A program made the translations under genes and the position numbers. The notes beneath the pieces are model-generated. The model searched no databases, had not been told where the DNA came from, and saw only the letters and a program-made list of their open reading frames with translations. A stretch of 19,069 nt of DNA from the NCBI GenBank assembly GCA_038740245.1, contig JAVYLZ010000009.1, positions 1-19,069 of the forward strand, in the 5' to 3' direction. Below, piece after piece: positions 3,001-19,068 of the stretch. This stretch comes from Candidatus Micrarchaeia archaeon. GTDB taxonomy: Archaea > Micrarchaeota > Micrarchaeia > CAILAH01. Positions within the stretch are counted from its first letter, which is position 1; every line of letters begins with the position of its first letter.

Positions 3001-4674
3001 GCGCGTTTTTTCGTACATCTCAAGCGTGTTTTTGAGCTCCTCGCGCCTCTTGCCCTCAATTTCAGAGTAAAGAAGGTGAATTCCTGCAAGTGCAGTATCA
3101 TTCGCAAGCCCGTTGAAATACAGCCAGCTGTCGGTATTCGCCCTTATTATGTCAGGCAATGAGCCCATGCTCGCCTCTTTTGATGTTTTTACTATCTCCT
3201 CGTCAAGGCCAATCAGCTTTTTCTGCAGCTCTTCAATCTGCTTGCGGCTTTCTTCGTCAAGCTCACGCTCCTTGAGCGACTTTATATCTTTTGCTATTTG
3301 GTCGCGCTCCTTCTTCAGGGCTTCATATTCGGCCCTTGCGGCTGATGCTTTGCGCATCGTCTTAATGGCAATGAACGGGCTGGCTAACATATCGCCTGTT
3401 GCGCGTGTGGTGACAGCTGTCTTGTAAAGCACATTGTAAATCGGTGAGCCGATAAGCGGCACCTTCGCAATTTTATCCAATGCACCGTGGCCCACCACGC
3501 CTTTTGAGTGTGTCTTGCGCAGCTCAACAAGCGTCATCAGGTCCACAGCCATTTTCGCATCTGCATATGCCACAACACTTCTCATCATGTCGGGCAGTGC
3601 CTTGTAATCTGAAAGGTCAAGGGGACCCGTACCCCATGCGCTAACAAGCGATCTGGTGGTGCCGTCTGATGTACCGAGCCTATTAGAGGAGATGCTTATA
3701 AGCAGCTGCCCAATTTCATAGCGCATCTCAATGTACTTGCCCTTTTCAATCTTGGCCGCATCGACCGAGTTAATATTGCTAAGCGATTTAATGGAAGACT
3801 CATACTTGGAAAGAATGGCATTAATCTTTCCTTCAATTTCGTTCCTAACCTGCTTCCAATTCTTGCCTTCCTTTTTTGCAATTTTCTTGGCAAGCACCTC
3901 AACCTGATTTTTTATTGAGTCCTCAATCTCCGCAGCCATACGCCGGGCTTTTTCCTTGGCCAGCATAGCCACGTCTTCGTGATGGGACAGCTGTATCTCA
4001 GGTTTTTTACGTGAGGCCGGCACACGCGGCGTTGTAATGTCAAGCAGCTTTAATGGGCTTGACCCGGCCGCGTACAGCCCAGCAATAAGGAATCCCATGA
4101 ATATGAAGAACAAGAGGCATATTTTCTGCCTGTCTTCATCCTCATTAAGGTAATCAAGCATTCCTTCTGTTGCTGCAGTGAGTTCCTGCGCCCGTGTTAT
4201 GCAATATATACCAGCCGATTCACTAACAGAGCCAAACAGGGGGTCTTTCTTTAGCTTTGCACGGACCTCTAGGCATCCCATCTCATCAAAAGGGCTTGTT
4301 GGAGCGGCTTTAAGCTCTGTCAAGTTCATCTTGGCAGTGAACTGGCCACGGATATCCGTATTGCCTTCACCTAAGCTCACGTCACCCGCGTAAATTTCAA
4401 TCTTCTTATCAGGCAGTGGCTCAAGCACGAGCCCCTGTGTTACCAATGTGCCTTCCTTTGGCAGCTGGTCCTCAACCGAACTCCCCATCATAATGCTTGC
4501 GTTGTAAAGGGTTACTGTAACATTATACACATCTGTTCCTATGGGGGTAACCCTGATTTTGAGCACGGCCATTGGCTTGTCATTTCCATAAGGGGAAATA
4601 AGCTCTGCACCGGAGAGGGGCAAAAGTAGCAATAATGCAAGTGCAAGTGCTGGTATGAGACCAAGGCGCCCCAT
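1..4674 (-). CDS. Giant membrane-anchored hypothetical protein (>=1558 aa, 3' end beyond the window): signal peptide, small extracellular Ig-like domain, one TM helix, very long charged alpha-helical/coiled-coil region
   Basis: Manual translation from ATG at 4674 stays open to base 1 with no stop. It starts MGRLGLIPALALALLLLLPLSGA|E (signal peptide), then a beta-rich ~160 aa with TDIRGQF, two Cys and sequons NVT/NAS/NLT, then TM ICLLFFIFMGFLIAGLYAAG (4122-4063), then SSPLKLLDITTPRVP and E/K/R/A-rich heptad-like segments (e.g. EYEALKKERDQIAKDIKSLKERELDEESRKQIEELQKKLIGLDEEI). Codon usage matches the other genes (CTT, GAG, AAG). TATA box upstream. Confidence 0.9.
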   Translation of the reverse strand, partial: MGRLGLIPALALALLLLLPLSGAELISPYGNDKPMAVLKIRVTPIGTDVYNVTVTLYNASIMMGSSVEDQLPKEGTLVTQGLVLEPLPDKKIEIYAGDVSLGEGNTDIRGQFTAKMNLTELKAAPTSPFDEMGCLEVRAKLKKDPLFGSVSESAGIYCITRAQELTAATEGMLDYLNEDEDRQKICLLFFIFMGFLIAGLYAAGSSPLKLLDITTPRVPASRKKPEIQLSHHEDVAMLAKEKARRMAAEIEDSIKNQVEVLAKKIAKKEGKNWKQVRNEIEGKINAILSKYESSIKSLSNINSVDAAKIEKGKYIEMRYEIGQLLISISSNRLGTSDGTTRSLVSAWGTGPLDLSDYKALPDMMRSVVAYADAKMAVDLMTLVELRKTHSKGVVGHGALDKIAKVPLIGSPIYNVLYKTAVTTRATGDMLASPFIAIKTMRKASAARAEYEALKKERDQIAKDIKSLKERELDEESRKQIEELQKKLIGLDEEIVKTSKEASMGSLPDIIRANTDSWLYFNGLANDTALAGIHLLYSEIEGKRREELKNTLEMYEKTREKNQEAAVEVLREKVTAFEDTAAGKSAKIEAEQHALKGDYDTAAAVLLEGLYKSVEEKSDKERGRLTALSIPERFEEAVKIAREEGVSEDVIREAGTVAKPALELLDPSVAARVEANEVQYPLGTDDEISRLIYIAREIVGADPIKYDVAPTTQDEQLRRLIELDPYLRDEVREALETEGYKKAIDVYRRGLESEEGIEATHTKFVTPNRYAERIEDIGSSQKMKQFLLHEREFMTLVDVLAEKGMLPEKMTIEEFGKYSELYRDELQNIEAAKKRGDAEAALEHEKRLEEVRRLKEIEDKIRQLGEYYAREMAEIDSRANSISQEDYNARASRLQARVLKSLNNITHSDVTAEFMRIKANYEDTKSQLRQKFENDYKSGGLIERARAEFRRAAAFNRATSRAKQYNLEEDIEKLANRAEWEKFSMEENFANAIEFNSNRRTEILALNRSLGYLVGGSEEGAEQYEYDAAKGTYKTFNESKRIARERAAKAGKLIDNTEDIILGMEEQVADIYRKAFTRFFKDVAEGKYADRGFSPTVYGNYYQKRIVNGKEKEFILGLDPEIDAPTQFKRLFDKSGFKVLENELLKEIAKELQEKGIVAKDAAAGKSALEMAKNYLGFYDSLQKLDILHPGLFLPYEAALKYTWIQKADSSYMALPQKKVFYDTLSNTEKLINYAVDKEGNITPVTPSKWQRFYIELEKIGSSLIGGHLIGLMAEATFTGTVLGRHGQLTKVGGPGQAGTAEHWRLNRNPELVDPVLDAYKWRMMLSKLDENTLSEIEGDAGPKKILDDAVKAISKAKVRIEKEISALEADKKAAENRKYFDDNVREAAVASIDERIALLREDYRRLDALSKELSNSRTIEYYTKREGVEKDIVKIEELIAKLREEVGEFLMGERLTDMITMSPRYAEEYATHIDYARKDLEHFQEMAKKIATEITDACKAAKITDVLGSERLLKAIDAERDVHRKALLAINGLGARRSSLLDEIAKIENEIAGNPPPQ

Positions 4675-4696
4675 CACTTCTTATAGGTGCGTTTTA

Positions 4697-6089: not shown

Positions 6090-6599
6090 TCACCACGGGA
6101 CCTTTTTCAGGCCAAGCCGGTTTGCTGCAATGTTGGCCGCGCGGTGCATAACATATGTAAGCACCATTATTGTAGCCACACTTTCCGCACGAAGCACTGC
6201 CGGGAGCTCATGCACGAGCACCGGCGCCGCAAGCACAAGCGCAAACACTATGAACAGCAGCTGGTCCATCACAAATGACGGCTTCCCACGCTCAATGCCC
6301 ATCCGCCGCTTTATGAAGCTGCCCGCCAAATCACCAAGCATTGCACCGCAGCTTGCAAGCGTGCCCATTAGCAGTATCCACGGTGCCGAGAGCAAGTAGG
6401 ACAGCAATGCGCTTGCAAGCGCACCTGCACCTACTCCCGCTGCCAGGCCGCGCCACGTCTTGCCGTCGCCCAGCCATCTCCTTTTGTCCCAGGCAACAGC
6501 CCCAAAATCAACCGGCGGGCCCCCGCCCAGCACCACAGGCGCCGCGTTTGCAATATACGGCGGGATTATGAACACGAGTATGGCCCACAAGTCAAGCAT
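6090..6599 (-). CDS. carS: CDP-archaeol synthase (CDP-2,3-bis-(O-geranylgeranyl)-sn-glycerol synthase, DUF46)
   Basis: PPYIANAAPV..GG.PVDFG...R.LGDGKTWRG, GAMLGDLAGSFIKRRMGIERG...DQL and C-terminal N...RLGLKKVPW; multiple TM helices. ATG at 6599 preferred over the track's TTG at 6608. Confidence 0.93.
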   Translation of the reverse strand: MLDLWAILVFIIPPYIANAAPVVLGGGPPVDFGAVAWDKRRWLGDGKTWRGLAAGVGAGALASALLSYLLSAPWILLMGTLASCGAMLGDLAGSFIKRRMGIERGKPSFVMDQLLFIVFALVLAAPVLVHELPAVLRAESVATIMVLTYVMHRAANIAANRLGLKKVPW

Positions 6600-6623
6600 A
6601 GTGCCCAATTCAAAATGCAGAAG

Positions 6624-6632
6624 CTTATATTA
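6624..6632. promoter_or_regulatory. Putative shared bidirectional TATA element between carS and sppA
   Basis: CTTATATTA sits in the 53-bp divergent gap, roughly 25-30 nt from both start codons (6599 and 6653). Confidence 0.4.
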
Positions 6633-6652
6633 CTTGATGGGCTCATAAGACC

Positions 6653-7606
6653 ATGAGGCAGGCGTCAGCTCAGTCCGGATACAGGTTTTCATTGCTCGGC
6701 ATAATAGTATTCTTGCTCATTGCAGTTGCAATAGGTGCAGTGCTGCTTGCAATCATAGGGCAGGTTTTAGGGCTATCACTTCTTTCCAGGCCCTGCATTG
6801 CAGAGGTGCGCATAGACGACTACATAACTGAATACAGGGAGGAGCCGTCCATATTCTCAAGCAGGCAGCGCCCGACCTCTGAGGATATAATAAAGCAGAT
6901 TGAGGAAGCCAACCGCCGCCCGGATGTTAAGGCGATTGTGCTTTACATAGATTCGCCCGGCGGCGAAGTGATTGCAAGCAGGGAGATTTATGAGGCCGCA
7001 AAGGCATCAAAAAAGCCGGTGGTTGCATACCTCCGCAACCTTGCCGCTTCTGGCGCTTATTACGCTGCAGTCGGCTCGGATTACATAGTATCTGAACCGG
7101 AAGCGATAACAGGGAGCATCGGTGTGCGTGCAACATTCATATCTCTTGAGGGGCTGTTTGAGAAGCTTGGTATAAATTATACTGTTGTTGCCTCCGGCGA
7201 CAAGAAAGCGATGGGGGACATAGACCGCCAGCTTACACCGGAGGAGCGCGAGATAGTGCAGGCATACATAGATGAAGTATTCTCGGACTTCAGGTCCGCG
7301 GTTTACGAGTCGCGGAAAGGCAACCCGCGGTTCACAGATGAGCGGTTCAGCCAGGCGCTTGACGCACGCATGCTCTCCGGAAGGATGGCATACTCGCTCG
7401 GCCTTGTTGATGAGGTGGGCAGCCGCAAGACAGCATTCAGGAAAGCGGCAGACCTTGCAGGCATTGAAGAATACAGCGAGTGCACGCTGTCAGGCCAGGG
7501 CGGCCTGCTTGAGGCGTTCATGGAGAGCGTTTCAGGTGTAATAAACGTGAATGTCAACATTGCGCCCCAGCTGATTGACCGGAGGGCTACGGTTTCTTAT
7601 ACCTAA
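6653..7606 (+). CDS. sppA: Signal peptide peptidase SppA (protease IV, S49)
   Basis: N-terminal TM; VKAIVLYIDSPGG, catalytic-Ser motif AASGAYY, TGSIGV, GDKK, and A..LGLVDEVG motifs. Confidence 0.93.
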   Translation: MRQASAQSGYRFSLLGIIVFLLIAVAIGAVLLAIIGQVLGLSLLSRPCIAEVRIDDYITEYREEPSIFSSRQRPTSEDIIKQIEEANRRPDVKAIVLYIDSPGGEVIASREIYEAAKASKKPVVAYLRNLAASGAYYAAVGSDYIVSEPEAITGSIGVRATFISLEGLFEKLGINYTVVASGDKKAMGDIDRQLTPEEREIVQAYIDEVFSDFRSAVYESRKGNPRFTDERFSQALDARMLSGRMAYSLGLVDEVGSRKTAFRKAADLAGIEEYSECTLSGQGGLLEAFMESVSGVINVNVNIAPQLIDRRATVSYT

Positions 7607-7619
7607 AAAATGAATCGGG

Positions 7620-8006
7620 TTATTGTTTCTTTATGAGGCGTGCATTGACCTGCCCGTCCTGTGCGGGCCTGTTAACCACGATTGCGTCACCGGCCTCCGT
7701 GGATATGTGCGCGCCCTTGGTGATGAACCCCTGCCTTGCATAGTTCCTGTTGTCGGGCGTTGAGATGACCTTGAGTATCTTGGCCTTGACACAGCGCCCC
7801 CTATCAACAACCACGTTCGCATATTGTATGCTCTTAACGTGAAGCTTGAGGCCGCCGCCCTTTACGGTTTTTTTCTCAGCCACTTTTTCCGAGCCCACCT
7901 TCGGGGCCGAGAAGTAGCCGCCCGCCTCATACTTCCTCTTATCCCTGCTTGGAACCCTGCGCCCGCCGCGCGGGTTTGTAAGTGACCTGCCGTGGAATTG
8001 GTCCAT
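7620..8006 (-). CDS. rps8e: 30S ribosomal protein S8e
   Basis: 128 aa, basic; GRS....GG......KRKYE.G, KGG..K, V..TPDN.NYARQG.ITKGA.I.TE.G.A.V.NRP.QDGQVNA.L signature. Confidence 0.95.
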   Translation of the reverse strand: MDQFHGRSLTNPRGGRRVPSRDKRKYEAGGYFSAPKVGSEKVAEKKTVKGGGLKLHVKSIQYANVVVDRGRCVKAKILKVISTPDNRNYARQGFITKGAHISTEAGDAIVVNRPAQDGQVNARLIKKQ

Positions 8007-8100: not shown

Positions 8101-10491
8101 TTAGAGCCCAAGCTCGGCCGCCAGGTCCTTGCGCGACACGCCCTCAATCCCCAGCAGCTCGTTTATCTCAAGTATTATCTCAATTGCCTTCTTCCTGTCA
8201 ACCTTTGAGAAGTCAACCATCTTGCGTATTGAGTCCATCTTGCCTATCAGCGCATACAGTATTACGCCGTCACGCCCGTACTTCTTGTATATTGAGAGTG
8301 CCTCGGCGCCGTACCTCCTCCGTATGTCATCCTCGGATAGCGTGGCAAACGTGCACCCGCCGCTGTTGCTTACCGAGTAAAGTATCTCGTCAAGCTCGTT
8401 CAGGTCAATGCCGTGCTCCAGCGACAGCTTCACAACATCCGACTCATTGTCAATCTTGCTCAGCAGGCGCAGCGATTTGGCGCCGAACTTTGCAAGCAGC
8501 TTGGCCTCCAGCGACATCCTCGCCGGCAGCGGAAGCTTCTGCAGAATCGGCACATCAAGTGGCACCAAATCCCTTATGATTATCTGCTTGCGCGGGCGCT
8601 CAATCGTCTCTGAAAGCGGCTGCGTGATTGCGCCCGCTTCGCGCATAGGAGGCGCCTTCTCCTCCTCTTCCTCCTCAAGCACGCGGTGCTGCTTGGGCCG
8701 TTCAAGGCGTATTATGCCCTTGGCCTCAAGGAACTCAAACAGCTTGATTATAAGCTCCTCGTCAACACCGGCCTCGTTCATTATCTGCTCGGCGGTCCGC
8801 CTCCCGTCTATGAGGCGGTATGCCATAACACCCTTGTCGCCAAACTCCTTCTGGATAAGCTCCTCAAACTCGCTGAGCCCTTCCTCTTCCGTTTCTTCTT
8901 CCTCACCTTCCTCGCCGATGCCAAACGGCTCCTCTTCCCCTGCCTCATGCGCTTCCTCCGCCTCAAGCCGCTCCTCTTCCTCCTCTTCTCCGGCCCCGCC
9001 TTTTTCCTCCTCTTCCTCACCTTCCTCCTCTTCGCCTACAACTAAGCCCTTTTCTTCCTCTTCTTCAGCTTCAGGCAGCTCCTTCTCTTCCTCCTCAGGG
9101 GGCGCAATCTCCTCTTTTGCAGGTTTAAGTTCCTCCTCTTCCTCAGCATGCGCCAGCATTTCTTCCTCCTTTTCCTCAGGGAGTGCCTCCTCTTTCGCGC
9201 TCTTCTCCGTTATTTCCTCTTTTATGGCCGGCGGTGCAATCTCCTCCTCTTCAATGTGGGGCCTTATTTCCTCCTCTTCCTCAGCTTTGGCGGATGGCTG
9301 CGGCTGCGCGGGCTTTTCCTCTTCGTGCGCAATCTTTGGCGCTGCCTTCTCCACAGGCCGTTCCTCAGGCTTCGGCGCGGGCCGCCCGGCAGCAATTTCC
9401 TCCTCACGCCCAACCCCAACCTTAGGTGGTGCCTTCTCCTTTGGCCGCTCAGCAGGGATTTCCTCCTCAATGTGCGGCTTTATTTCCTCTTCCTCCTCAC
9501 GCGGCGTTTCCTTGCGCACAGGCGGCTTTTCCTCAACGGGCTGCGGAGGCACGTACGGTGCGATATACTTTGCCTGCAGCATATAGCCCATAATCTCATT
9601 CACGCGCTCGGGCGGGATGCCTGCAAGCTCTGAAGCCCGCTTGGGGCTGGCGTGCACGGTGAGTATTGAATAGATGCGCAGGCCGTCCGCACCAAACCTG
9701 TCAAGCATATCCTTCTGCATCCTGTACTTGTCTGAAATGGGCGCGTCAACTATTCTGTAATCTGCTGATTGGTCAACGGCCTGAAGCGGTGGGGCCTTGG
9801 GCACTTCCTCACGCACAGCGGGCGGTGCAGGGGCCGCGGGCGGCAATTCCTCCTTTTTTTCAACGGGCAGGATTTGCTCAGGCGGCCGTGCAGGCACTTC
9901 TTCGCGCGCCCCGGGCGGCGCCACCTTCGCGGCAGGCGGCTGTATCTCCGGCCCCGCTTTTTGCGTGGGCTGTACAGTAGCCTCCTTTTTGGGCATCTCT
10001 GCACGCAGGTTCTCGGCCATCTGGTTTGCAAGCATGAAATCAAATATCTCCTGCACGCGCTTTGGCTCAATGCCGAGTGCGGACGATACCTCTTCCACAG
10101 TCGCAGGCTTCTTATGCAGCAGTTCATACACCTTTATGCCCGCAGATGAAAAGCTCTTGAAAAGCAGCTTTTGGTGCCTGAACCGCGCAAGCGAATCAGT
10201 CGCTGTAACCTGCAGCAGAGCGCCTTCCTCACTTTTGCGCTCGCTGAACTGCTCGGGTATCCCGCTTATGGTAATTAGGCCAAGCCGGCCCATAAAGTCA
10301 AGTATCCTGTATACCTTCTCCTCGCTTATGGGCTGCGCCTCGCGCATTATTTCATCTATGCTTGTGGTCTTCTCCAATATTGAGTAGATCCTGAGGCCGT
10401 CCGCACCGAACTTCCGGCTCACTTCCAGCTTCTGCTTGTACCTCGTAAGCGGGTCCACGCTCGCTATTGTTATCTGCACAATTGGGGGCAT
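8101..10491 (-). CDS. Hypothetical protein with six winged-helix-like repeats and Pro/Glu-rich disordered linkers
   Basis: 796-aa ORF with a GGTGAG RBS. Recurrent ~60-65 aa units with consensus [FY]GxxGxx[IV]YxxI...EI...G[IV]...V.[EK]I..F[ML]...G.I. Very acidic tract at about aa 332-538. No signal peptide or TM. Confidence 0.8.
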   Translation of the reverse strand: MPPIVQITIASVDPLTRYKQKLEVSRKFGADGLRIYSILEKTTSIDEIMREAQPISEEKVYRILDFMGRLGLITISGIPEQFSERKSEEGALLQVTATDSLARFRHQKLLFKSFSSAGIKVYELLHKKPATVEEVSSALGIEPKRVQEIFDFMLANQMAENLRAEMPKKEATVQPTQKAGPEIQPPAAKVAPPGAREEVPARPPEQILPVEKKEELPPAAPAPPAVREEVPKAPPLQAVDQSADYRIVDAPISDKYRMQKDMLDRFGADGLRIYSILTVHASPKRASELAGIPPERVNEIMGYMLQAKYIAPYVPPQPVEEKPPVRKETPREEEEEIKPHIEEEIPAERPKEKAPPKVGVGREEEIAAGRPAPKPEERPVEKAAPKIAHEEEKPAQPQPSAKAEEEEEIRPHIEEEEIAPPAIKEEITEKSAKEEALPEEKEEEMLAHAEEEEELKPAKEEIAPPEEEEKELPEAEEEEEKGLVVGEEEEGEEEEEKGGAGEEEEEERLEAEEAHEAGEEEPFGIGEEGEEEETEEEGLSEFEELIQKEFGDKGVMAYRLIDGRRTAEQIMNEAGVDEELIIKLFEFLEAKGIIRLERPKQHRVLEEEEEEKAPPMREAGAITQPLSETIERPRKQIIIRDLVPLDVPILQKLPLPARMSLEAKLLAKFGAKSLRLLSKIDNESDVVKLSLEHGIDLNELDEILYSVSNSGGCTFATLSEDDIRRRYGAEALSIYKKYGRDGVILYALIGKMDSIRKMVDFSKVDRKKAIEIILEINELLGIEGVSRKDLAAELGL

Positions 10492-10501
10492 AATGGCCTC
10501 A

Positions 10502-10532
10502 CCGGACCAAAAGGTTTATGTTAAAGGTCCGG
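10502..10532. repeat. Inverted repeat CCGGACC-N17-GGTCCGG abutting the RBS of the 796-aa gene
   Basis: Perfect 7-bp arms at 10502-10508 and 10526-10532. On the minus-strand transcript the 3' arm runs into GGTGAG. Confidence 0.5.
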
Positions 10533-10562
10533 CACCCTTATATCAATCGCAACCCTTAAATA

Positions 10563-10598
10563 ACTACACCACACACTTCGCCAAAATTGTGATGTAGT
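10563..10598. repeat. Inverted repeat ACTACACCACA-N14-TGTGATGTAGT in the divergent intergenic region
   Basis: 10/11 match between the arms at 10563-10573 and 10588-10598; the single mismatch is a G-U pair on the minus strand. Confidence 0.5.
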
Positions 10599-10652
10599 AT
10601 ATCTATTTTTCCCTAATGCCACAACTGCCCCTGCGCAGCCAGCATAGTTAGA

Positions 10653-10660
10653 TTTAAATT
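10653..10660 (+). promoter_or_regulatory. Putative TATA box (TTTAAATT) for the plus-strand gene run
   Basis: Lies 22-29 nt upstream of the GTG at 10682 with no RBS in between, consistent with a leaderless archaeal transcript. Confidence 0.45.
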
Positions 10661-10681
10661 AAAATTGCGCTAATTCCTTTT

Positions 10682-11866
10682 GTGTCATATGTTGATTCAC
10701 AGATTAGCACCGGTGTTGACCAGCTTATAAACCTGGTCTACAGGGAAAAGCGTGTGCCAATGGAGCGCGCAGCACGTGAGCTCGGTCTTGCGCAAAAAGT
10801 GATTGAGGAGTGGTCACGCATACTTGAGGAGGAGGGCATCATCCGCATTGAGTATCAGCTTACCTCCTCATACCTGGTATGGGCCGGCGAGCGGATAAAA
10901 GAGCCCGAAGGCCTTGGCGACCTGCGGCAGCAGCGCGACTCGCTGCTTGCCGAGGTTGAAGGGCTTGCGAACAGGGTGCTCGGCCTGCACGAGGATACAC
11001 AGAAATCCGAGAAGCGCCTCTCCCAGCTTATGAAGGAGATGTCCACCATAAGCACGGGCATAAGCAAGGCGGTTGACGCGCTTGAGGCCACAAAAAAGGA
11101 AGGCCAGGCCGCTTCGCAGGAAGCAAAGGAGATGGTTTCGCAGCTTGAGCAGATGATTGAAAGCGTGGGCTCAAAAATGAAGGAATACGAGCAGATGCTC
11201 AAGCAGGCAAGCAAGTCCGTTGAGGGCGATGTGAAGGCGGCTGGCGCGCTTGTTGAGCAGTCAAAATCGCTTCACGATGAGGTTGAGCGCCAGCTGCGTG
11301 CGGTTGAGGCGCAGAAAAAGCGCATTGACGCGTTATATTCCGATTTGCAGCGTGCCGAGGCGGACTTGCGCACGCGCATTGAGCAGTATTCACAGCTCCG
11401 TGAAGGCACTGTTGCCGCGGGGCTTGGCTCTGCACGCGAGGAGTTTGAGGGCATAAAGCAGATGTATAGTTCGCTTGATGACACGCTGCACCAGCGGCTT
11501 GAGGAGATGCGGCTTGCGCTCAAGACGCTTGACGAGTTCAGCAGGGACATACAGTCCCTTGAGGAAAAGATAAGCGAGGATGTGGTTGCGCAGCGGTATG
11601 CAGAGATAAAGCGCATGATGGAGTCGCTTTCAGAGATAAGCGATGAGGAGATGCGCATTGACAAGAAGCTTAAGCTGCTCATAAACGAGCTGCGCAGCCT
11701 CAGGATAGAGGTGCCGCCGACAGCCAGCAAGGAGGTTGCCGAGAAGGTTGAGGCTGCCAAGGAAAAGATTAAGGAAACCAAGCGTGAGGTTACGATGCTT
11801 GAGCAGAAGCGCAAGGAGCTGCTTGACCTTATGAGCCGCATGAAGCAGCAAAGCAAGAAGGGCTGA
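10682..11866 (+). CDS. Hypothetical protein: N-terminal winged-helix-like domain plus long coiled coil
   Basis: ISTGVDQLINLV...VPMERAARELGL...IEEWSRILEEEGIIRIEY (HTH plus wing), followed by ~320 aa of E/K/Q/L heptad-rich sequence. Ends 4 nt before the ATPase gene. Confidence 0.8.
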   Translation: MSYVDSQISTGVDQLINLVYREKRVPMERAARELGLAQKVIEEWSRILEEEGIIRIEYQLTSSYLVWAGERIKEPEGLGDLRQQRDSLLAEVEGLANRVLGLHEDTQKSEKRLSQLMKEMSTISTGISKAVDALEATKKEGQAASQEAKEMVSQLEQMIESVGSKMKEYEQMLKQASKSVEGDVKAAGALVEQSKSLHDEVERQLRAVEAQKKRIDALYSDLQRAEADLRTRIEQYSQLREGTVAAGLGSAREEFEGIKQMYSSLDDTLHQRLEEMRLALKTLDEFSRDIQSLEEKISEDVVAQRYAEIKRMMESLSEISDEEMRIDKKLKLLINELRSLRIEVPPTASKEVAEKVEAAKEKIKETKREVTMLEQKRKELLDLMSRMKQQSKKG

Positions 11867-11870
11867 TATA

Positions 11871-13370
11871 ATGAAACCCGATGTGAAGGAAGAAGGGCTG
11901 CTTGATTCATATACTCTTGATGTTGAAGGGATGGCTGTTGATGTGCGCATCACGCAGAGCACATCGCAGTACGTGCCCCTGTATTCCATAAAGATACCCG
12001 GCCTTGCCGAAGGCACCAAGATAATACTTGACACGCAGATAAAGGGGGAGCTTGTCGGCGAGGTCAACGTTGACATAAGCGAGATGCTTGATGCGCGCAA
12101 GAACAAGTATGTGCGCGACGCTTTCTTTTCAAAGACCTCTAAGGTGCTGCTGAGGCATTTCCCCAACCTGACGCACGAAAACCTGCGCGTGCTCACGGCA
12201 TACTTGATGCAGTATACGCTGGGCCTCGGCGACCTTGAGCCGTTTGTGCATGATGAGGGGCTTGAGGAGATAGTTGTAAACGGCTCTCAGCAGCCGGTAT
12301 GGGTGTTCCACAAGAAGTACGGCTGGTGCATCACCAACGTCGTGATAAAGGATGAGAAGCTGATACAGGATTACGCCGCGGGGATAGGCCGCCGCGTGGG
12401 CAGGCAGATTAACCTGCTCAACCCGCTTATGGACGCCCGGCTGTCAACCGGCGAGCGTGTCAACGCCACGCTTTTCCCAATATCAACATCAGGCAACACA
12501 ATCACCATCAGGAAGTTTGCACGGAACCCTTGGACGCCATCCCTGTTTGTCCAGCGCTCCACAATATCCGCAGAGGTAATGGCACTGCTGTGGCTGAGCA
12601 TACAGAACGAGATGTCTATCCTTGTTTCTGGAGGCACTGGCAGCGGTAAGACATCATTCCTGAACGCGCTGTCAAACCTCTTCCCGCCCAACCAGCGCGT
12701 AATCAGCATTGAGGATACTCGTGAGATTTACCTGCCGTCATTTTTGCAGTGGGTGCCGCTTTCAACACGCCTGCCCAATCCCGAAGGAAAGGGCGAGATA
12801 AGCATGCTTGACCTTATGGTGAACGCGCTCAGGATGCGGCCCGACCGCATAATAGTAGGCGAGGTTAGGCGGCAGCGTGAGGCCGAGATACTGTTTGAGG
12901 CGATGCACACGGGGCACTCTGTATATGCAACCCTGCACGCCGATAACTCAGAGCAGACAGTATCGCGCCTTACCAACCCGCCAATCAGCATACCCCAGAC
13001 GATGCTTGGCGCGCTTGACCTCATAGTTGTGCAGTACAGGAACCGCAGGACTGGCATCCGCAGGACGTTTGAGGTTGCCGAGATGACAGATACCGGCGGC
13101 TACAATGTTATATACAGGTGGAACCCGCGTACCGACAGGATTGAGAAGGTTCAGGAGATATCATCGCTTGCAGACCGCATAGGCCTTTACACGGGGATGA
13201 CGCTTAAGGAGGTGCGGCAGGACATCTCTGAAAAGGCGCAGGTCATAAACTACATGGTGCGCAACGACCTGCTTGACATTGAGTCGGTGGGCAAGATAGT
13301 GGCCGAATATTACAGGAATCCCGAGCAGGTGGTTGCGCTTGCCGCGCGCGGTGAGGGGGTGCGCCGCTGA
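11871..13370 (+). CDS. Type II/IV secretion system ATPase (TadA/CpaF/VirB11/FlaI superfamily)
   Basis: Walker A GGTGSGKT, Asp box SIEDTRE, LRMRPDRIIVGEVR (Walker B), His box AMHTGH..ATLHA, plus DARL..GERVNA and TITIRKF. Confidence 0.93.
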   Translation: MKPDVKEEGLLDSYTLDVEGMAVDVRITQSTSQYVPLYSIKIPGLAEGTKIILDTQIKGELVGEVNVDISEMLDARKNKYVRDAFFSKTSKVLLRHFPNLTHENLRVLTAYLMQYTLGLGDLEPFVHDEGLEEIVVNGSQQPVWVFHKKYGWCITNVVIKDEKLIQDYAAGIGRRVGRQINLLNPLMDARLSTGERVNATLFPISTSGNTITIRKFARNPWTPSLFVQRSTISAEVMALLWLSIQNEMSILVSGGTGSGKTSFLNALSNLFPPNQRVISIEDTREIYLPSFLQWVPLSTRLPNPEGKGEISMLDLMVNALRMRPDRIIVGEVRRQREAEILFEAMHTGHSVYATLHADNSEQTVSRLTNPPISIPQTMLGALDLIVVQYRNRRTGIRRTFEVAEMTDTGGYNVIYRWNPRTDRIEKVQEISSLADRIGLYTGMTLKEVRQDISEKAQVINYMVRNDLLDIESVGKIVAEYYRNPEQVVALAARGEGVRR

Positions 13371-13579: not shown

Positions 13580-14842
13580 TTGGTGTTAGAGTTGCCTGAG
13601 GATGCATTTTCCGGGTTTTACAAGAGGACTGTTGAGGAGCGCATGCGCATAATTGAGCGGGAGTGCGAGCTTTCAAAGGAGGAAAGCAGTGTGCTGACTT
13701 CTGGCGGCCTCCCAATTCAGGAAGCGGATATGATGCGCGAGAATGTGATAGGCCTGTATTCGCTGCCGCTCAGTGTTGCGGTGGGCTTCCGCATAAATGA
13801 TAGGGATTATTTGGTGCCCATGGCCGGTGAGGAGCCCAGCGTGGTTGCCGCCGCATCAAAGGCCGCAAAAATGGCGCGCGAGTTCGGAGGGTTCAAGGCC
13901 GTATCCACCGAGCCGGTAATGATAGGCGAGATTGCGCTGCTCAAGCCCGACCCGGACGTTGCTGGGACAATAGCCGCGCACAAGCAGGATCTCCTTAAGA
14001 TAATGAATGAGATTGCACCGTCAATGGCTGCGCGCGGCGGCGGCCCGCGTGACATATGGGCCCGCGAGTATACATCTGCGCACGGCAAGTGTGCGGTTGT
14101 TTATTTCTCGGTTGACGTGCGCGATGCAATGGGCGCGAACACAGTCAACAGGATTGCCGAGGGCCTTTCACCGGCGCTTACAGCGCTTGTTGGCGGCACG
14201 GTGTTCATGCGGATACTTACAAACCTGTCAATAAAACGGATTTCACGGGCCAAAGCGTTCTTTACAGATGATATGGAGATGGCAAAGGGCATCCTTCTAG
14301 CACAGTCTTTTGCAGAGAACGATGTTTTCCGTGCGGTAACCCATAACAAGGGCATAATGAACGGGATAAGCGCGCTTGCACTCGCAACGGGCAACGATAC
14401 GCGCGCCGTGGAAGCGGGCGCTCACGGGTATGCAGCATACAGCTCGTTTTACAGGCCGCTCACAAAATACTACATTGATGATGGGAAACTTGCAGGCGAG
14501 ATTGAAGTGCCGCTTGCGCTTGGCATTGTTGGCTCGGGCACCAACCATCGCGCCGCACGCATATGCATTGACAGGATACTGCGCGTGAAATCGTCACAGG
14601 AGCTGTGCAATGTTGCCGCATCACTGGGCCTTGCACAGAACTTTGCGGCGCTTCGTGCGCTTACGCAGGAAGGCATAAACCGAGGGCATATGCTCCTGCA
14701 CTCAAAAACGCTTGCGCTCATGGCGGGTGCGACCCCAGAGGAGGCCGCACAGGTATACGACCATTTCAAGAATTACAACGGCGACATTACAATGACGCTT
14801 GTGAAGCAGGTGCTTGATGAGATGCGGAGGGCAAGGAGGTAG
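13580..14842 (+). CDS. mvaA: Hydroxymethylglutaryl-CoA reductase, class II ('degradative'/MvaA-type)
   Basis: ENVIG, VPMA.EEPSVVAAAS, DAMGAN, THNKGIMNG, GND.RAVEAGAH, GLAQNFAALRAL..EGI..GHM.LH; catalytic Glu, Lys, Asp and His present. The true start may be the TTG at 13592 behind GGTG. Confidence 0.93.
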   Translation: MVLELPEDAFSGFYKRTVEERMRIIERECELSKEESSVLTSGGLPIQEADMMRENVIGLYSLPLSVAVGFRINDRDYLVPMAGEEPSVVAAASKAAKMAREFGGFKAVSTEPVMIGEIALLKPDPDVAGTIAAHKQDLLKIMNEIAPSMAARGGGPRDIWAREYTSAHGKCAVVYFSVDVRDAMGANTVNRIAEGLSPALTALVGGTVFMRILTNLSIKRISRAKAFFTDDMEMAKGILLAQSFAENDVFRAVTHNKGIMNGISALALATGNDTRAVEAGAHGYAAYSSFYRPLTKYYIDDGKLAGEIEVPLALGIVGSGTNHRAARICIDRILRVKSSQELCNVAASLGLAQNFAALRALTQEGINRGHMLLHSKTLALMAGATPEEAAQVYDHFKNYNGDITMTLVKQVLDEMRRARR

Positions 14843-14852
14843 GAATGTTTGC

Positions 14853-14883
14853 ACAGGGGAGCAGGCACCCCGCCTGCCCCTGT
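14853..14883. other. GC-rich stem-loop between the HMG-CoA reductase gene and nmd3
   Basis: ACAGGGG(AG)CAGGC-ACCCC-GCCTGCCCCTGT: 12-bp stem with a 2-nt bulge and 5-nt loop, 10 nt after the TAG stop. Confidence 0.6.
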
Positions 14884-14919
14884 CATGGCCTCAAAATGCA
14901 AATGTGTTGGTGTGTTCAC

Positions 14920-15525
14920 ATGCGAAAACAATGCCCGCAGTGTGGTGCAGCAAGCGATTCCGTGAAATTCATTGGCAGCTTTTGCGAGCCGTGCTTTTTT
15001 TCACTGAATGCGCCCTGCTTGCCCGACCATATCACAATTTATGAGTGCAGGGAATGTGGCGGCGAGCGTATAAAGCAATGGGGTGAGGAAATCGCCACGG
15101 CGGTTGCTCATGCGCTGAGGAGTAAAGTGTTCGGGATACCAAAGGTGAGCATCAAGGGCGATGCGGCAAACATAAGGTATGAAGGCCTGCCGCGTGTGTT
15201 CACTGTAAGGCTGAAGCGCAAGGAATCACTGTGCGATGCGTGCTCGCAAAAATTCTCCGGCTATTATGAGGGCATAATACAATTGCGCGGCCGGTATGCG
15301 CGCGACCCGCAGTTCGTTGACTCGCTGCTCAGGAAGCTTGAGAGGGCTACGTTTGTGCAGAAGGTTGTTGAGCTCAAGGAAGGCATAGACATTTATTATG
15401 GGGACCGCGCAATCACGCGCTCAATACTCTCTGCCATGAAGCTCAAGCCCAAAGTTTCAAATAAATTGTATGGCGTGAAGGACGGCCAGCGCGTATACAG
15501 GACAACTTTTCTCATAAGGGATTAA
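14920..15525 (+). CDS. nmd3: NMD3-family protein (short archaeal form)
   Basis: Four CxxC pairs (CPQC, CEPC, CREC, CDAC), then GYYEGIIQLRG, G.DIY, and the KLYGVKDGQRVYRTTFLIR C-terminus. ATG at 14920 is preceded by GGTG and is preferred over the track's 14845. Confidence 0.85.
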   Translation: MRKQCPQCGAASDSVKFIGSFCEPCFFSLNAPCLPDHITIYECRECGGERIKQWGEEIATAVAHALRSKVFGIPKVSIKGDAANIRYEGLPRVFTVRLKRKESLCDACSQKFSGYYEGIIQLRGRYARDPQFVDSLLRKLERATFVQKVVELKEGIDIYYGDRAITRSILSAMKLKPKVSNKLYGVKDGQRVYRTTFLIRD

Positions 15526-15552: not shown

Positions 15553-17571
15553 CTAGCCGAGATACACCTGGCAAAGGCCAACGAGTGCGCTCGGGCAATG
15601 TGTTGTGTACTTTGTGCCCGCCTTGTCCTCATACTCAACCTTGAACCCGGCAATCCTCGTGTAATCGTTTTCCTCGTCAACAGCATACGTACACTCAAAT
15701 ATAGTGTCATCCACAGTTTTGTAGCCCGCACCGGTGCCGCAGTCGTAGTAATACCTTATGCTTTCATACGGTCCAGTGTTCTCAAGCTGTGCCTCAAACC
15801 TGTATTTTTCTGTGCCCGGCACAATCTCAAGCACGTCGTAGTTGAGCGCGGTGCACTCAAGCGGCGGTATCACCGTATTAACGGGCGTGACACCCTCACC
15901 TGGTGTTTCCAGAGGCCCGAGCTTTGCCAGTACCGTGGCGCGTATGTCCGCAATATCGTTCACTCCAATCTTGCAGTCATCCTTCAGCATAAGGCTCTTG
16001 AACTCATAATTGCCGTCCCCCTTGGTAACATAAACGCCAGGCATATTGGATACGCAATCGCTTGAACACATATATTGGGGAGTATATGGCGGGAACGGGC
16101 TTGTGATGGTCCTGCACACCTGGACATCAGTTAATGTAACGTTCGGGCAGGGGTAGTTTGAGTTGCAGAACGCAACCGGCCCGTTAGTGCTCGTGTTTAT
16201 CAGCGATACAGTCCCATATACGCGTATCCCCTTCTCGTTGACATCCTCAAAGTTGTTGTAGTTAACAGTAGGCGGCTCCGCATTAATGCTTACCCCAAGA
16301 GCCAGCCCATCGTATGGGTTGGTCGGCTCATCACCCTTAATCACGGTGAACGGCACATAGATTGTACTTTCATTGTCAAACCCGTTGCCGCACACCGCTT
16401 TACTGTAATTCTTGTATTTGTATGTAATCTCAAACTTGTGGTCATTCACATCGGCCGAGCCGATGGGCGCAAACGCCGTTATGGTTATGTTGAATTCCTT
16501 GGTCTCTTCCGGCTTTATAACGCCCTGCGGATCGGAATATAGGACCTTTAGGGTGGGGTTAGGTGCAACCTCAAAGCTCTTTATCTGCACAGGTTTTGAT
16601 GATGTGTCCTTGCCCACGCCTATCTCATAAACATAAATCTTGGTTTCCGTGCTTGGGTTTTTTATACGCAGTTTCACTGTAATGGTGTCCGTTTGGTTAT
16701 CAATAAGGGTGTCCGGGAATAAGAAAAAGCCGCTGCCCTGCAGTGCAACCGACCCGGTAACCCCAGGCGCAACCTCGCCGGTTATCGCAGTGAACGTTAT
16801 CTCCTTGCTTACAGGTGCAGGGTATGAGCCGCTGACAAGCTTGAAAAATGGGTGCACATATGTATTGCCAACGTTTGTCTCCTCAATGAATAATGCGCCG
16901 CACCTGCTGATTGAGGCATCAACCTTGAGCGTGTGCTGGCCGGCACTATCTATTTCAACATTTTGCACAGCGTTTATCCCGCTTAGCCCGCCGCTTTTCA
17001 CTGGTTCCCCGTCAAGCGTGAGCGTGTAAGTGCCGTCGCACACCATCCCACCGCGGGATTTTGCATATTCAACAGTCACACGTTTATCCGGGGGCGGAGG
17101 CTGGCTGTTTATGTTAAGGAAGAGCAAATATGCTGAACCGATGTCCTTTGCAATAGCCGGTTCTTGCTTGCAGGTAGGCGGATAAGTGTATGTTGAATAA
17201 AGCTGCGAAGTTGTAATCTTACAGTCAAAATACTCATTTCCGCCAAGCGTGGCCAAGCCCTTAATGCCATTGTCACCAACAATGCTGTATCTTGCAGGGA
17301 TACAGTTTATAGTTTGGTGACCTTCCCCAAATTCGTACTCATTGCAGAATGTTGCCACCTTTGAGTCGTGGGTAATTGCATAGTCATAAAGTGTGCTTAG
17401 GTCATCCCCAACACAGATGGCGGTTCCCGACTGGGCAGTGCTTATAAGTGAGGGGGAGAGGCTTGAAGACCATCTGGTGTATGCATTCTCCTCGCCCTGG
17501 ACAGTATAATCCACAGCGCAAAGTGTGTTTGCAAGCACAAGCGCGAGCAATGCCAGCACATACATTCTCAT
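15553..17571 (-). CDS. Secreted Cys-rich multi-Ig-like surface (glyco)protein, hypothetical
   Basis: Signal peptide MRMYVLALLALVLANTLCA; beta-rich T/V/Y/G/N composition; 20 Cys; sequons NQT, NIT, NYS, NES, NTS, NVT; Ig-like segment (ITVKLRIKNP..IKPEETKEFNITI) and PKD-like tail (YYYDCGTG...CTY); no C-terminal TM; GAGGT RBS. Confidence 0.8.
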   Translation of the reverse strand: MRMYVLALLALVLANTLCAVDYTVQGEENAYTRWSSSLSPSLISTAQSGTAICVGDDLSTLYDYAITHDSKVATFCNEYEFGEGHQTINCIPARYSIVGDNGIKGLATLGGNEYFDCKITTSQLYSTYTYPPTCKQEPAIAKDIGSAYLLFLNINSQPPPPDKRVTVEYAKSRGGMVCDGTYTLTLDGEPVKSGGLSGINAVQNVEIDSAGQHTLKVDASISRCGALFIEETNVGNTYVHPFFKLVSGSYPAPVSKEITFTAITGEVAPGVTGSVALQGSGFFLFPDTLIDNQTDTITVKLRIKNPSTETKIYVYEIGVGKDTSSKPVQIKSFEVAPNPTLKVLYSDPQGVIKPEETKEFNITITAFAPIGSADVNDHKFEITYKYKNYSKAVCGNGFDNESTIYVPFTVIKGDEPTNPYDGLALGVSINAEPPTVNYNNFEDVNEKGIRVYGTVSLINTSTNGPVAFCNSNYPCPNVTLTDVQVCRTITSPFPPYTPQYMCSSDCVSNMPGVYVTKGDGNYEFKSLMLKDDCKIGVNDIADIRATVLAKLGPLETPGEGVTPVNTVIPPLECTALNYDVLEIVPGTEKYRFEAQLENTGPYESIRYYYDCGTGAGYKTVDDTIFECTYAVDEENDYTRIAGFKVEYEDKAGTKYTTHCPSALVGLCQVYLG

Positions 17572-17577
17572 ATCTCA

Positions 17578-19068
17578 TTACCTCGTGTGTGGAACCGCAC
17601 CATACCCCCCTATTGTTACGGTTATTGAGCCGATGCCTAACTGATTCTCAGGCAGCTTGAACTTAAGCCCAATATTGCCGCCTACAGTGGTTTCCTTGAG
17701 TAGCTTCCCATCCACCATCCCCTGAATAAACTCTGGGCGCAAATAGAGGTCCACTGTCTTGTTGATTTCCCATACAAGCTCGGTAAATGCCCCAAAATCG
17801 TGCCGAAGGGCCGCTTTCTGGTGTCTGAGCAGAATACCATACATCTGCTCAAGGTTGAACTCAGTAACCCTATAAGTAAAGCCCCCGCCAAGTTTCACGC
17901 CTTCTCTTGTAAATGAATACGCAGCATACGGTTCAGTGCTGAAAGTGAGTATGGAGGGCTTAAGCTTTCCTCCACTAATATTGGTCGCCTTGTTAAGGAC
18001 AGCAAGCGAGTTTCTCAACCCTACAATGCTGCCGCCTGCAAATTCCTTTGCGATGTTCGTATAAATCTCCCCAGAAACCGCAAGGTCCTCACTATTGTAT
18101 GTCCCAGATGCAACAACAGCAATTTTTGCATCAAACCGCCAGCCCTCATCACTCCTGTAGCCAAGCACGCCCCCGATCGCTCCCCTATAAACCATGAGCT
18201 CACTTGTGCCTTTCTTAAGCTTTTCCAAGTCTTCTTCCTTAATGCCGCCAGGCGGGAACTGCACCGCGGTTGTATATTCAAAGGCCATACCCATTACGAA
18301 TTTGCCCAACTCCTTGCTCCATCCAAATTCTATGGTGCTGAATGCATAGTTTGGGTTGTACCGAGGCACATTTTCGCGTATCGCAATTATTGCATCTGCA
18401 AACGCATTAAGTGCATTTAGTTGATTGTCAGTTAAACCACCAGATTTTCCTTGATTTCGCGCTTCACCAATCTGCTGCTTGGCGAGCTCAGGATACTTGG
18501 CTATAAAGTCCTTTATCGCATTTGCATCAGCCGGAACTGTGCTCCCATCCGGATACTTGAATATTGGGTTTTGTACGTATGCATCCATTACATCAGAGAG
18601 CTTAGAGCTCTCCATTGCCCTTACAAGGTCGCCTGCGCGTGCCCACGTGTTGTTATTTTCGTCAGTCCTAACGTTTTCAAACAAGCCATAGGTTCCTCCT
18701 ATTGGTATCCAGGGCTCCATTGCAAGACCCAAATTAGGCGGTGAAAACGGTGAGAACCTGCTATCACTGGGCCTTACCCTCTCAACAGCGGGCGGAAGTG
18801 TATGCTCATCACCAAGGCCGCCGCGATACTTTTCCAAAATTGCGCTGTATATCGTGTGCAGCGAGCCTATAAGCCGGCCAACTTCCTCTTCAGCCTTGTA
18901 TTCGGTGATTTGCGAGGCGCCTGTGCCCTCAGGTCTCTCTTCAAGGCAATCTGCAACTCTCATAAGCCGAAGGTATGAGATTATAACCAGGTTTTTTATG
19001 GCCTGAAGCTTGGTATCCTCGCTCCACATCCTGTTCTTGACTGCGACAACATTGGCAATCTCCCCGCT
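17578..19068 (-). CDS. Hypothetical protein (5' end beyond the window) with helical region and C-terminal putative transmembrane beta-barrel
   Basis: The frame remains open upstream of the track's ATG at 19029 (SGEIANVVAVKNR-M) to the window edge. The last ~256 aa are a series of alternating-polarity, Gly/aromatic-rich strands. Ends TAA TGA. Confidence 0.75.
   Translation of the reverse strand, partial: SGEIANVVAVKNRMWSEDTKLQAIKNLVIISYLRLMRVADCLEERPEGTGASQITEYKAEEEVGRLIGSLHTIYSAILEKYRGGLGDEHTLPPAVERVRPSDSRFSPFSPPNLGLAMEPWIPIGGTYGLFENVRTDENNNTWARAGDLVRAMESSKLSDVMDAYVQNPIFKYPDGSTVPADANAIKDFIAKYPELAKQQIGEARNQGKSGGLTDNQLNALNAFADAIIAIRENVPRYNPNYAFSTIEFGWSKELGKFVMGMAFEYTTAVQFPPGGIKEEDLEKLKKGTSELMVYRGAIGGVLGYRSDEGWRFDAKIAVVASGTYNSEDLAVSGEIYTNIAKEFAGGSIVGLRNSLAVLNKATNISGGKLKPSILTFSTEPYAAYSFTREGVKLGGGFTYRVTEFNLEQMYGILLRHQKAALRHDFGAFTELVWEINKTVDLYLRPEFIQGMVDGKLLKETTVGGNIGLKFKLPENQLGIGSITVTIGGYGAVPHTR

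Follow-up and report, generated by a model that had tools for sequence, protein, structure and literature searches.

A native Micrarchaeota gene encodes a putative outer-membrane-type β-barrel with an apparently inverted register

The window analysed here, a stretch of 19,069 nt, is the entire contig C9 of an archaeal genome (G000; 688 kb, 81% complete) and carries at one end a gene for a protein with a mainly helical N-terminal domain and a C-terminal domain predicted to form a 12-stranded amphipathic β-barrel. The gene is real and native to the archaeon; its product, judged from structural models, appears to be a variant of a known fold with a putative membrane location and function.

The barrel gene and its locus

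The barrel gene occupies the frame at 17578..19068 on the minus strand (496 aa) and runs open off the contig end. All 12 strand segments quoted in the first-pass annotation are present, in order, in this single frame. The predicted barrel domain, with short turns after the odd strands, covers residues 241–493, which correspond to window positions 17590..18348 (minus strand). The preceding N-terminal, mainly helical domain (18349..19068, minus strand) is truncated by the contig end and, compared with the 653–709 aa proteins encoded in the same slot of related genomes (hereafter slot-mates), lacks ~160–210 residues. A profile search of the G000 assembly for this missing N-terminus gave a best E-value of only 0.37. 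The helices at residues 182–233, located directly before strand 1, are the most similar part of the protein across the family.

Downstream, after a gap of 6 nt, lies the gene for a 672-aa secreted protein (15553..17571, minus strand), and the two genes are likely co-transcribed. The 672-aa protein has a short hydrophobic signal peptide, 18 Cys residues after residue 70 and no membrane anchor. The upstream partner in G000 is found on another contig (C12:16117-17473) and encodes a 413-aa protein with a signal peptide and a C-terminal TM anchor. Behind it a frame starts and runs off the contig; this is probably the missing 5′ end of the barrel gene, and C12 and C9 are likely neighbouring contigs with a few hundred bases missing between them. 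On its other side the locus is flanked by the convergent gene for the archaeal marker NMD3 (14845..15525, plus strand), a flank kept in 8/8 genomes with the 672-aa gene, and by the gene for HMG-CoA reductase (13580..14842, plus strand), also a conserved flank. The genes for CDP-archaeol synthase, an SppA-type peptidase and ribosomal protein S8e (6090..8006) are further markers tying the contig to an archaeon. Between these lies a conserved block (8101-13370) encoding a 796-aa multi-winged-helix protein with an acidic linker, a 394-aa coiled-coil protein and a type II/IV secretion ATPase, which adjoins the barrel locus in several genomes. The far end of the window (1-4677, minus strand) encodes a protein of at least 1559 aa, for which Pfam has no family; its N-terminus is signal-like, a single hydrophobic segment lies in its interior and its long remainder is helical.

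Conservation and origin

The barrel gene is a native, order-specific Micrarchaeota gene. Sequence searches found a single relative, 70% identical, in G047, a genome of another species of the genus labelled Candidatus Micrarchaeota, where the orthologue lies in identical gene order. The G000–G047 pair has a dS of ~1 and a pN/pS of 0.30 in the barrel, indicating that the barrel is under purifying selection. The GC3 of the barrel gene is 0.51 compared with 0.57–0.69 in four neighbours. Contigs of two studies bridge the barrel gene to the 672-aa gene and one bridges the latter to NMD3, no single piece of those contigs spanning the whole stretch.

The family comprises nine genomes, which are also the entire order within the collection used. 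The 672-aa gene was found in seven of the nine by a single-protein search and, in addition, was seen in its locus in G029. In G005, G023, G029 and G041, a gene of 653–709 aa lies directly upstream of the 672-aa gene and follows a 415-aa gene whose product carries a C-terminal TM anchor, the three genes being contiguous. In G011 the 675-aa gene is complete and lies at the end of one contig, with its partner at the end of another, and G017 has both ends of the gene, split over two contigs. Overall, the slot is filled in 8/9 genomes, some in pieces, and the slot search gave no match in G035 (84% complete, 120 contigs). A profile of the eight members found nothing among the other 392 genomes of the class that were sampled. 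Its matches to its own eight members are partly circular, although G029 and G011 were first found with a profile lacking them (E-values of 5.7e-14 and 8.2e-8, N-terminal part).

The barrel gene has diverged strongly: identity between G000 and G005 is 23%, compared with 67% for HMG-CoA reductase. BLASTP of the window protein against the G005 and G023 slot-mates was not significant. Alignment to the distant members with hhalign gave an E-value of 8e-5 and a probability of 61% over the pre-barrel helices and the first hairpin, and a leave-out profile ranked the window protein first of 12,824 segments, but with an E-value of 0.6. Since this sequence link is weak, it is mainly position and shared layout that suggest the window protein to be an orthologue of the six distant slot-mates.

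Wider searches returned little else. A longer-protein search confirmed 0 of 7,999 candidates, a near-length search recovered only the window protein itself and the G047 protein, phmmer gave one hit among 1.84 billion representatives, and the single hit of a profile search among 8,000 candidates was already a member of the alignment. Metagenome scans confirmed 0/494 and 0/594 stretches, PDB sequence profiles gave nothing below an E-value of 0.026, and neither Pfam nor NCBIfam has a family for the barrel protein. Thus, the taxonomic range of the gene is this order of Micrarchaeota (slot in 8/9 genomes, G047 as the sole sequence match), and the first-pass assignment to an archaeal, probably DPANN, chromosome is borne out by the genome being a member of Micrarchaeota and by the archaeal marker genes next door.

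Strand pattern and predicted fold

The first-pass annotation described about 12 consecutive amphipathic strands, and this count withstood a comparison with shuffled sequences. Using a simple home-made alternation score on 9-mers, a crude measure of amphipathy, we found 12 amphipathic segments in residues 241–496 versus 6.1 ± 1.7 in shuffles, none of the 1000 shuffles reaching 12. The protein ranks first among the 339 G000 ORFs of at least 200 aa without a helical TM segment (taken from 567 ORFs called in the genome). In the six testable slot-mates, amphipathy was matched by 0, 0, 1, 6, 0 and 0 of 300 shuffles each, and in a 117-aa slot-mate fragment by 81 of 300. The last 255 residues contain 13% Gly and 11% aromatics but neither Cys nor a helical TM segment. 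In its strands, which are consecutive, amphipathic and rich in Gly and aromatics, the domain shows the sequence features expected of the OMP type.

Structural models point in the same direction. For the 496-aa protein, the ESM Atlas model reaches a pTM of 0.70. The ten structural matches listed for it all fall in bacterial clusters, and those with an assigned family are outer-membrane barrels: an autotransporter (TM 0.68, the best), SlipAM (0.66) and OMP_b-brl (0.63). The G011 member, which is 16% identical, also matches SlipAM-type and barrel-type entries, from a weak model (pTM 0.34). AlphaFold2 reached a pLDDT of 32.5 with the single sequence and, at still low confidence, a pLDDT of 54 and a pTM of 0.42 with eight sequences. 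In the latter model the helices and strands 8–11 are fair, but model residues 144–217 (strands 4–7) score below 50; it has 11 long strands rather than 12, strands 5 and 6 being not separated and strands 5–7 unresolved. Foldseek with this model gave no match at E ≤ 0.001, its leading entries being membrane barrels, and a viral fold library likewise gave none at that threshold. In VIA-align against 48,161 chains, the best match was 4rl8 (Z 13.6, rmsd 3.8, 208 residues aligned), followed by BrkA (13.3), KdgM (13.1), AIDA-I (12.9) and FapF (12.8), and the best 50 entries are, by title, all membrane barrels or complexes containing them. These alignments begin at model residue 70, past the helices. 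The predicted structures resemble outer-membrane barrels, and we consider an OMP-type barrel fold probable on the strength of the models.

Register and topology

In bacterial barrels both termini are on the short-turn side. In the window protein, short turns follow the odd strands, which would place both ends and the long loops on one face, unlike in bacterial barrels. DSSP linkers in the AlphaFold2 model measure 4, 21 and 3 residues after strands 1–3 and 4, 15 and 4 after strands 7–9, with two exceptions to the pattern: the linker following strand 10 has 2 residues and that following strand 11 has 9. The alternation of short turns and longer loops noted in the first pass is therefore seen in the sequence and partly in the model, whereas the linkers after strands 10 and 11 deviate from it. 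By eye, the same turn/loop alternation is visible in the slot-mates, whose loop after strand 8 is long and helical. Placing all short turns on one face requires 12 strands, and the AlphaFold2 model has 11. A register offset of one strand would cause each Atlas alignment to lose one end strand, and this is what we observe: the alignments in rows 1, 2, 5 and 9, including that to the autotransporter (end at 474), stop at 470–474 and omit the last strand, and the alignment to OMP_b-brl (row 7) starts at 253 and omits the first. VIA-align alignments leave the last strand of the target unmatched, which may only mirror the strand missing from the 11-strand model; their ranges therefore do not decide the register. 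Collectively, the sequence, the DSSP linkers of a weak model and the Atlas ranges make the barrel look offset by one strand relative to autotransporter barrels, as had been suggested, and both termini and the long loops likely share one face, opposite to the bacterial arrangement.

By contrast, the likeness of strand 11 to a bacterial β-signal is only loose, and the β-signal reading of the first-pass annotation is not supported. According to the accessible text of PMC13067283, the β-signal is a C-terminal motif with an aromatic last residue. Strand 11 is internal, its motif is not conserved, and the last residues of the family members are W, K, K, K, R, R, F and R, that is, aromatic in only 2/8.

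Export and membrane insertion

The five full-length slot-mates begin with 20–25 residues containing 8–10 K/R, followed by an h-region from residue 21–26. The signal-peptide-like start sought in the first-pass annotation is thus present in these slot-mates, as called by pattern (basic n-region plus h-region), the corresponding N-terminus of the window protein being part of the missing segment. The h-regions of the slot-mates are weak (KD12 2.0–2.35, n = 5); those of two other barrel-like families of the order are weak as well (1.75–2.31, where the start could be called), and the seven downstream partners have 1–2 K/R and a KD12 of 2.75–3.38. TatC was not found in G000 (81% complete). From this sequence pattern, the barrel protein is likely exported by Sec, and a long, basic and weakly hydrophobic signal peptide would favour post-translational export of the unfolded chain.

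The insertion machine of bacterial barrels is another matter. The search for an Omp85/BamA-like gene came back empty: Omp85 (PF01103) was not found in G000 (81% complete) and matched 0/401 genomes of the class, a search in which controls scored 7/14 and which a remote structural analogue may escape. A 2014 survey likewise did not detect Omp85/TpsB in archaea, according to its accessible text (PMC4104836). As no bacterial insertion machine was found, the barrel would need an undescribed route to a membrane.

As to the envelope, G000 encodes an 867-aa probable S-layer protein (G000:C7:10086-12299, plus strand; L053), with weak matches to PF05123 (E 0.0077) and PF05124 (E 4.3e-4, below the cut-off) and with relatives in 9/9 genomes of the order. 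PF05123 exceeds its cut-off in only 3/201 genomes of the class and 0/9 in the order, and its absence was left unused because the profile is too insensitive here. An earlier description of ARMAN cells gave them two membranes (PMC4243693, accessible part). Passages of two later reports (bioRxiv 2021.04.28.441871; PMC11329633) describe S-layers in Micrarchaeum harzensis and ARM-1, two cultured Micrarchaeota for which a second membrane had been proposed.

Other barrel-like genes in the genome

A second barrel-like gene of G000 (C8:12243-14990, minus strand; L033:6244-8991) encodes 916 aa with about 16 amphipathic strands by eye, in an apparently normal register, and an invariant C-terminal Trp in 7/7 aligned sequences. 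It is matched in 9/9 genomes of the order, the G035 match falling outside the barrel part, was not found in other families among 251 genomes of the class, and has no Pfam or PDB match (nothing below an E-value of 0.99 with PDB sequence profiles). Profiles of this family and the window family show no similarity (probability 1.3%). The C8 barrel gene is followed by a gene for a 1217-aa secreted protein. On the opposite strand, the region C8:9369-12912 encodes a small pilin-like membrane protein and an ATPase-sized ORF, which by eye resemble a VirB2/VirB4-type module. A divergent second copy of the C8-type barrel, without the terminal Trp, is present in G011 (C44:9100-10238; L044). A third candidate in G000 (C36:1349-5623, plus strand; L034) is a 1425-aa protein with a signal peptide, a long Gly/aromatic-rich C-terminal half and a terminal Tyr, and relatives of 1400–1490 aa occur in 4/5 genomes tried. 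Either a large barrel or an insertase other than Omp85 is conceivable for this protein.

Comparison with known systems

The best structural matches are the 12-stranded channels COG4313 (4rl8), FapF (5o65) and KdgM/NanC (4pr7, 2wjr, 8xua), with Z scores of 12.0–13.6. The archaeal protein resembles them in being a predicted single-chain amphipathic meander of similar size, with a signal peptide in full-length slot-mates, but differs in sequence (6–10% identity), in its short turns after odd strands and in its helical N-domain of ~400 residues; moreover, the archaeal family lacks a conserved terminal aromatic residue and the host genome lacks an Omp85 match. Type Va autotransporters (BrkA 3qq2, AIDA-I 4mee, EspP, EstA 3kvn; PF03797) share the overall layout predicted for the archaeal family, with a long signal peptide, a large N-domain, a helix and a C-terminal 12-stranded barrel, and score a TM of 0.68 in the Atlas and a Z of 12.6–13.4 in VIA-align. 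However, the archaeal protein has no PF03797 match and no β-signal, and its register appears to be one strand off.

Slam (type XI) translocons have 14 strands and TPR repeats, and their secreted cargo is encoded next door. The combination of a helical N-domain and a barrel is similar to that of Slam (PF04575, SlipAM), SlipAM entries appear among the matches of two family members, and the secreted 672-aa gene adjoining the barrel gene is reminiscent of Slam cargo adjacency. By contrast, the archaeal barrel has ~12 strands and no sequence match to TPR (PF14559) or SlipAM (PF04575).

Toxin stems form β-pores by inserting hairpins. They and the BAM-independent pores CsgG and secretins, the latter two given in Table 1 of PMC7383365, keep their bulk on one side while short hairpin tips cross, and are comparable only in how they may work, since these are oligomeric barrels and the archaeal protein is a predicted single-chain barrel of OMP-like fold.

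Among archaea, Ihomp1 of Ignicoccus is a small helical oligomer. It and a tentative PopA relative of Altiarchaeales are archaeal envelope pores, to which the window protein may be likened, although its model aligns to PopA with a Z of only 7.4 (VIA-align). The possible distant PopA relative in this DPANN archaeon is raised in one sentence of the accessible text of PMC12228718. In that of PMC12153355, porins are mentioned only for CPR bacteria, and that of PMC4702898 added nothing on archaeal barrels. A literature search, with most subscription journals outside its scope, found no paper on such an archaeal barrel family, the sentence on the PopA relative coming closest.

A possible mode of insertion and its alternatives

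We tentatively favour the following reading of the models: an exported, Sec-dependent helical domain joined to a single-chain 12-stranded barrel that would insert with its short turns first and without Omp85 and would likely serve at the cell surface, as a pore for solutes or as an anchor. After post-translational export of the unfolded chain by means of the basic, weakly hydrophobic signal peptide, the barrel would insert from the side to which it is secreted, short turns leading, without Omp85/BAM. Given short turns after strands 1, 3, 5, 7 and 9, both the N-terminal domain and the C-terminus would remain on the arrival side, as would the long loops with their helices. Nothing but tight turns would then have to pass through the bilayer, making an insertase less necessary. 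In vitro, barrels are described to fold into bilayers unassisted and to insert in the absence of BAM (PMC7383365, accessible part). The bilayer would most likely be reached from the space under the S-layer, and may be the host membrane at the site of contact or the cell's own membrane from outside. The anchored 415-aa and secreted 672-aa neighbours may form a surface module with the barrel, as their gene order suggests. Two further points weigh against this reading. The C8 family, with its invariant terminal Trp and apparently normal register, is better explained by a shared insertion machine than by self-insertion, and a pore standing open in a cell's sole membrane would, unless gated, dissipate the ion gradients. 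It is also conceivable, if less readily, that the order makes several Omp85-free barrels of bacterial type with a distinct signal peptide, of which this family would be a circularly permuted, short-turns-first version.

A different reading is a true outer membrane, equipped with a non-Omp85 insertion machinery of its own. It is favoured by the three or more barrel-like families of this one genome, of which one ends in an invariant Trp and is matched in 9/9 genomes. The window protein would then be a porin, a Slam- or two-partner-like translocon for the 672-aa protein, or an autotransporter-like anchor displaying the helical domain. The Slam-like architecture of helical domain plus barrel and the large secreted gene directly following two of the barrel genes are consistent with this reading, and an S-layer is compatible with an outer membrane, as in Caulobacter and Deinococcus. 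The two membranes described for ARMAN cells fit as well. We nevertheless regard it as rather doubtful: Omp85 matches 0/401 genomes, an S-layer-like gene is present in 9/9 genomes of the order, the two cultured Micrarchaeota are reported with an S-layer on the cytoplasmic membrane (accessible parts of bioRxiv 2021.04.28.441871 and PMC11329633), and Pfam, NCBIfam and the PDB give no sequence link to the Slam, autotransporter or TpsB families.

The low AlphaFold2 confidence, and the fact that alternation alone does not tell which face points outward, would also suit a β-meander, soluble or peripheral, that forms an open groove or a barrel filled by a helix. Its hydrophobic face would bind lipid or lie against the helical domain, and its OMP likeness would reflect predictor bias. 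The family lacks a conserved terminal aromatic residue and no known insertion machine was found, as such a protein might lead one to expect. We consider it unlikely, as the best 50 of the 48,161 chains compared by VIA-align carry titles of membrane barrels or of complexes with them, the Atlas model has a pTM of 0.70, the Gly/aromatic-rich, Cys-free domain contrasts with its Cys-rich soluble neighbour, and the turns of the family members resemble, by eye, bacterial periplasmic turns.

Finally, bacterial DNA misjoined at the contig end or recently transferred from a diderm bacterium, as the terminal position of the gene, its GC3 below that of four neighbours and its bacterial structural look-alikes might suggest, is very improbable: the chimerism of which the first-pass annotation had warned is refuted as misassembly by the identical gene order in G047 (at a dS of ~1), the slot kept in 8/9 genomes and the bridging contigs of two studies, and moreover the upstream partner ends C12 of the same genome and no other relative occurs among the 1.84 billion representatives. 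An ancient bacterial origin of the gene is possible.

Implications

Single-chain membrane barrels are tied to Omp85. This tie would no longer hold with a barrel native to, and conserved in, an archaeon. On the bolder reading of several Omp85-free barrels in the order and a circularly permuted one in this family, nature would have produced a single-chain barrel whose topology is inverted, either as a pore for contact with the host or within an archaeal outer membrane that has so far escaped notice. The proposed inverted register would be directly testable in vitro on the 250-residue domain, without culturing the organism. The routes of metabolite exchange in DPANN archaea are described as unclear in the accessible text of PMC6349945, and an archaeal barrel would provide a handle on how DPANN archaea take host material and on whether any of them has a second membrane.
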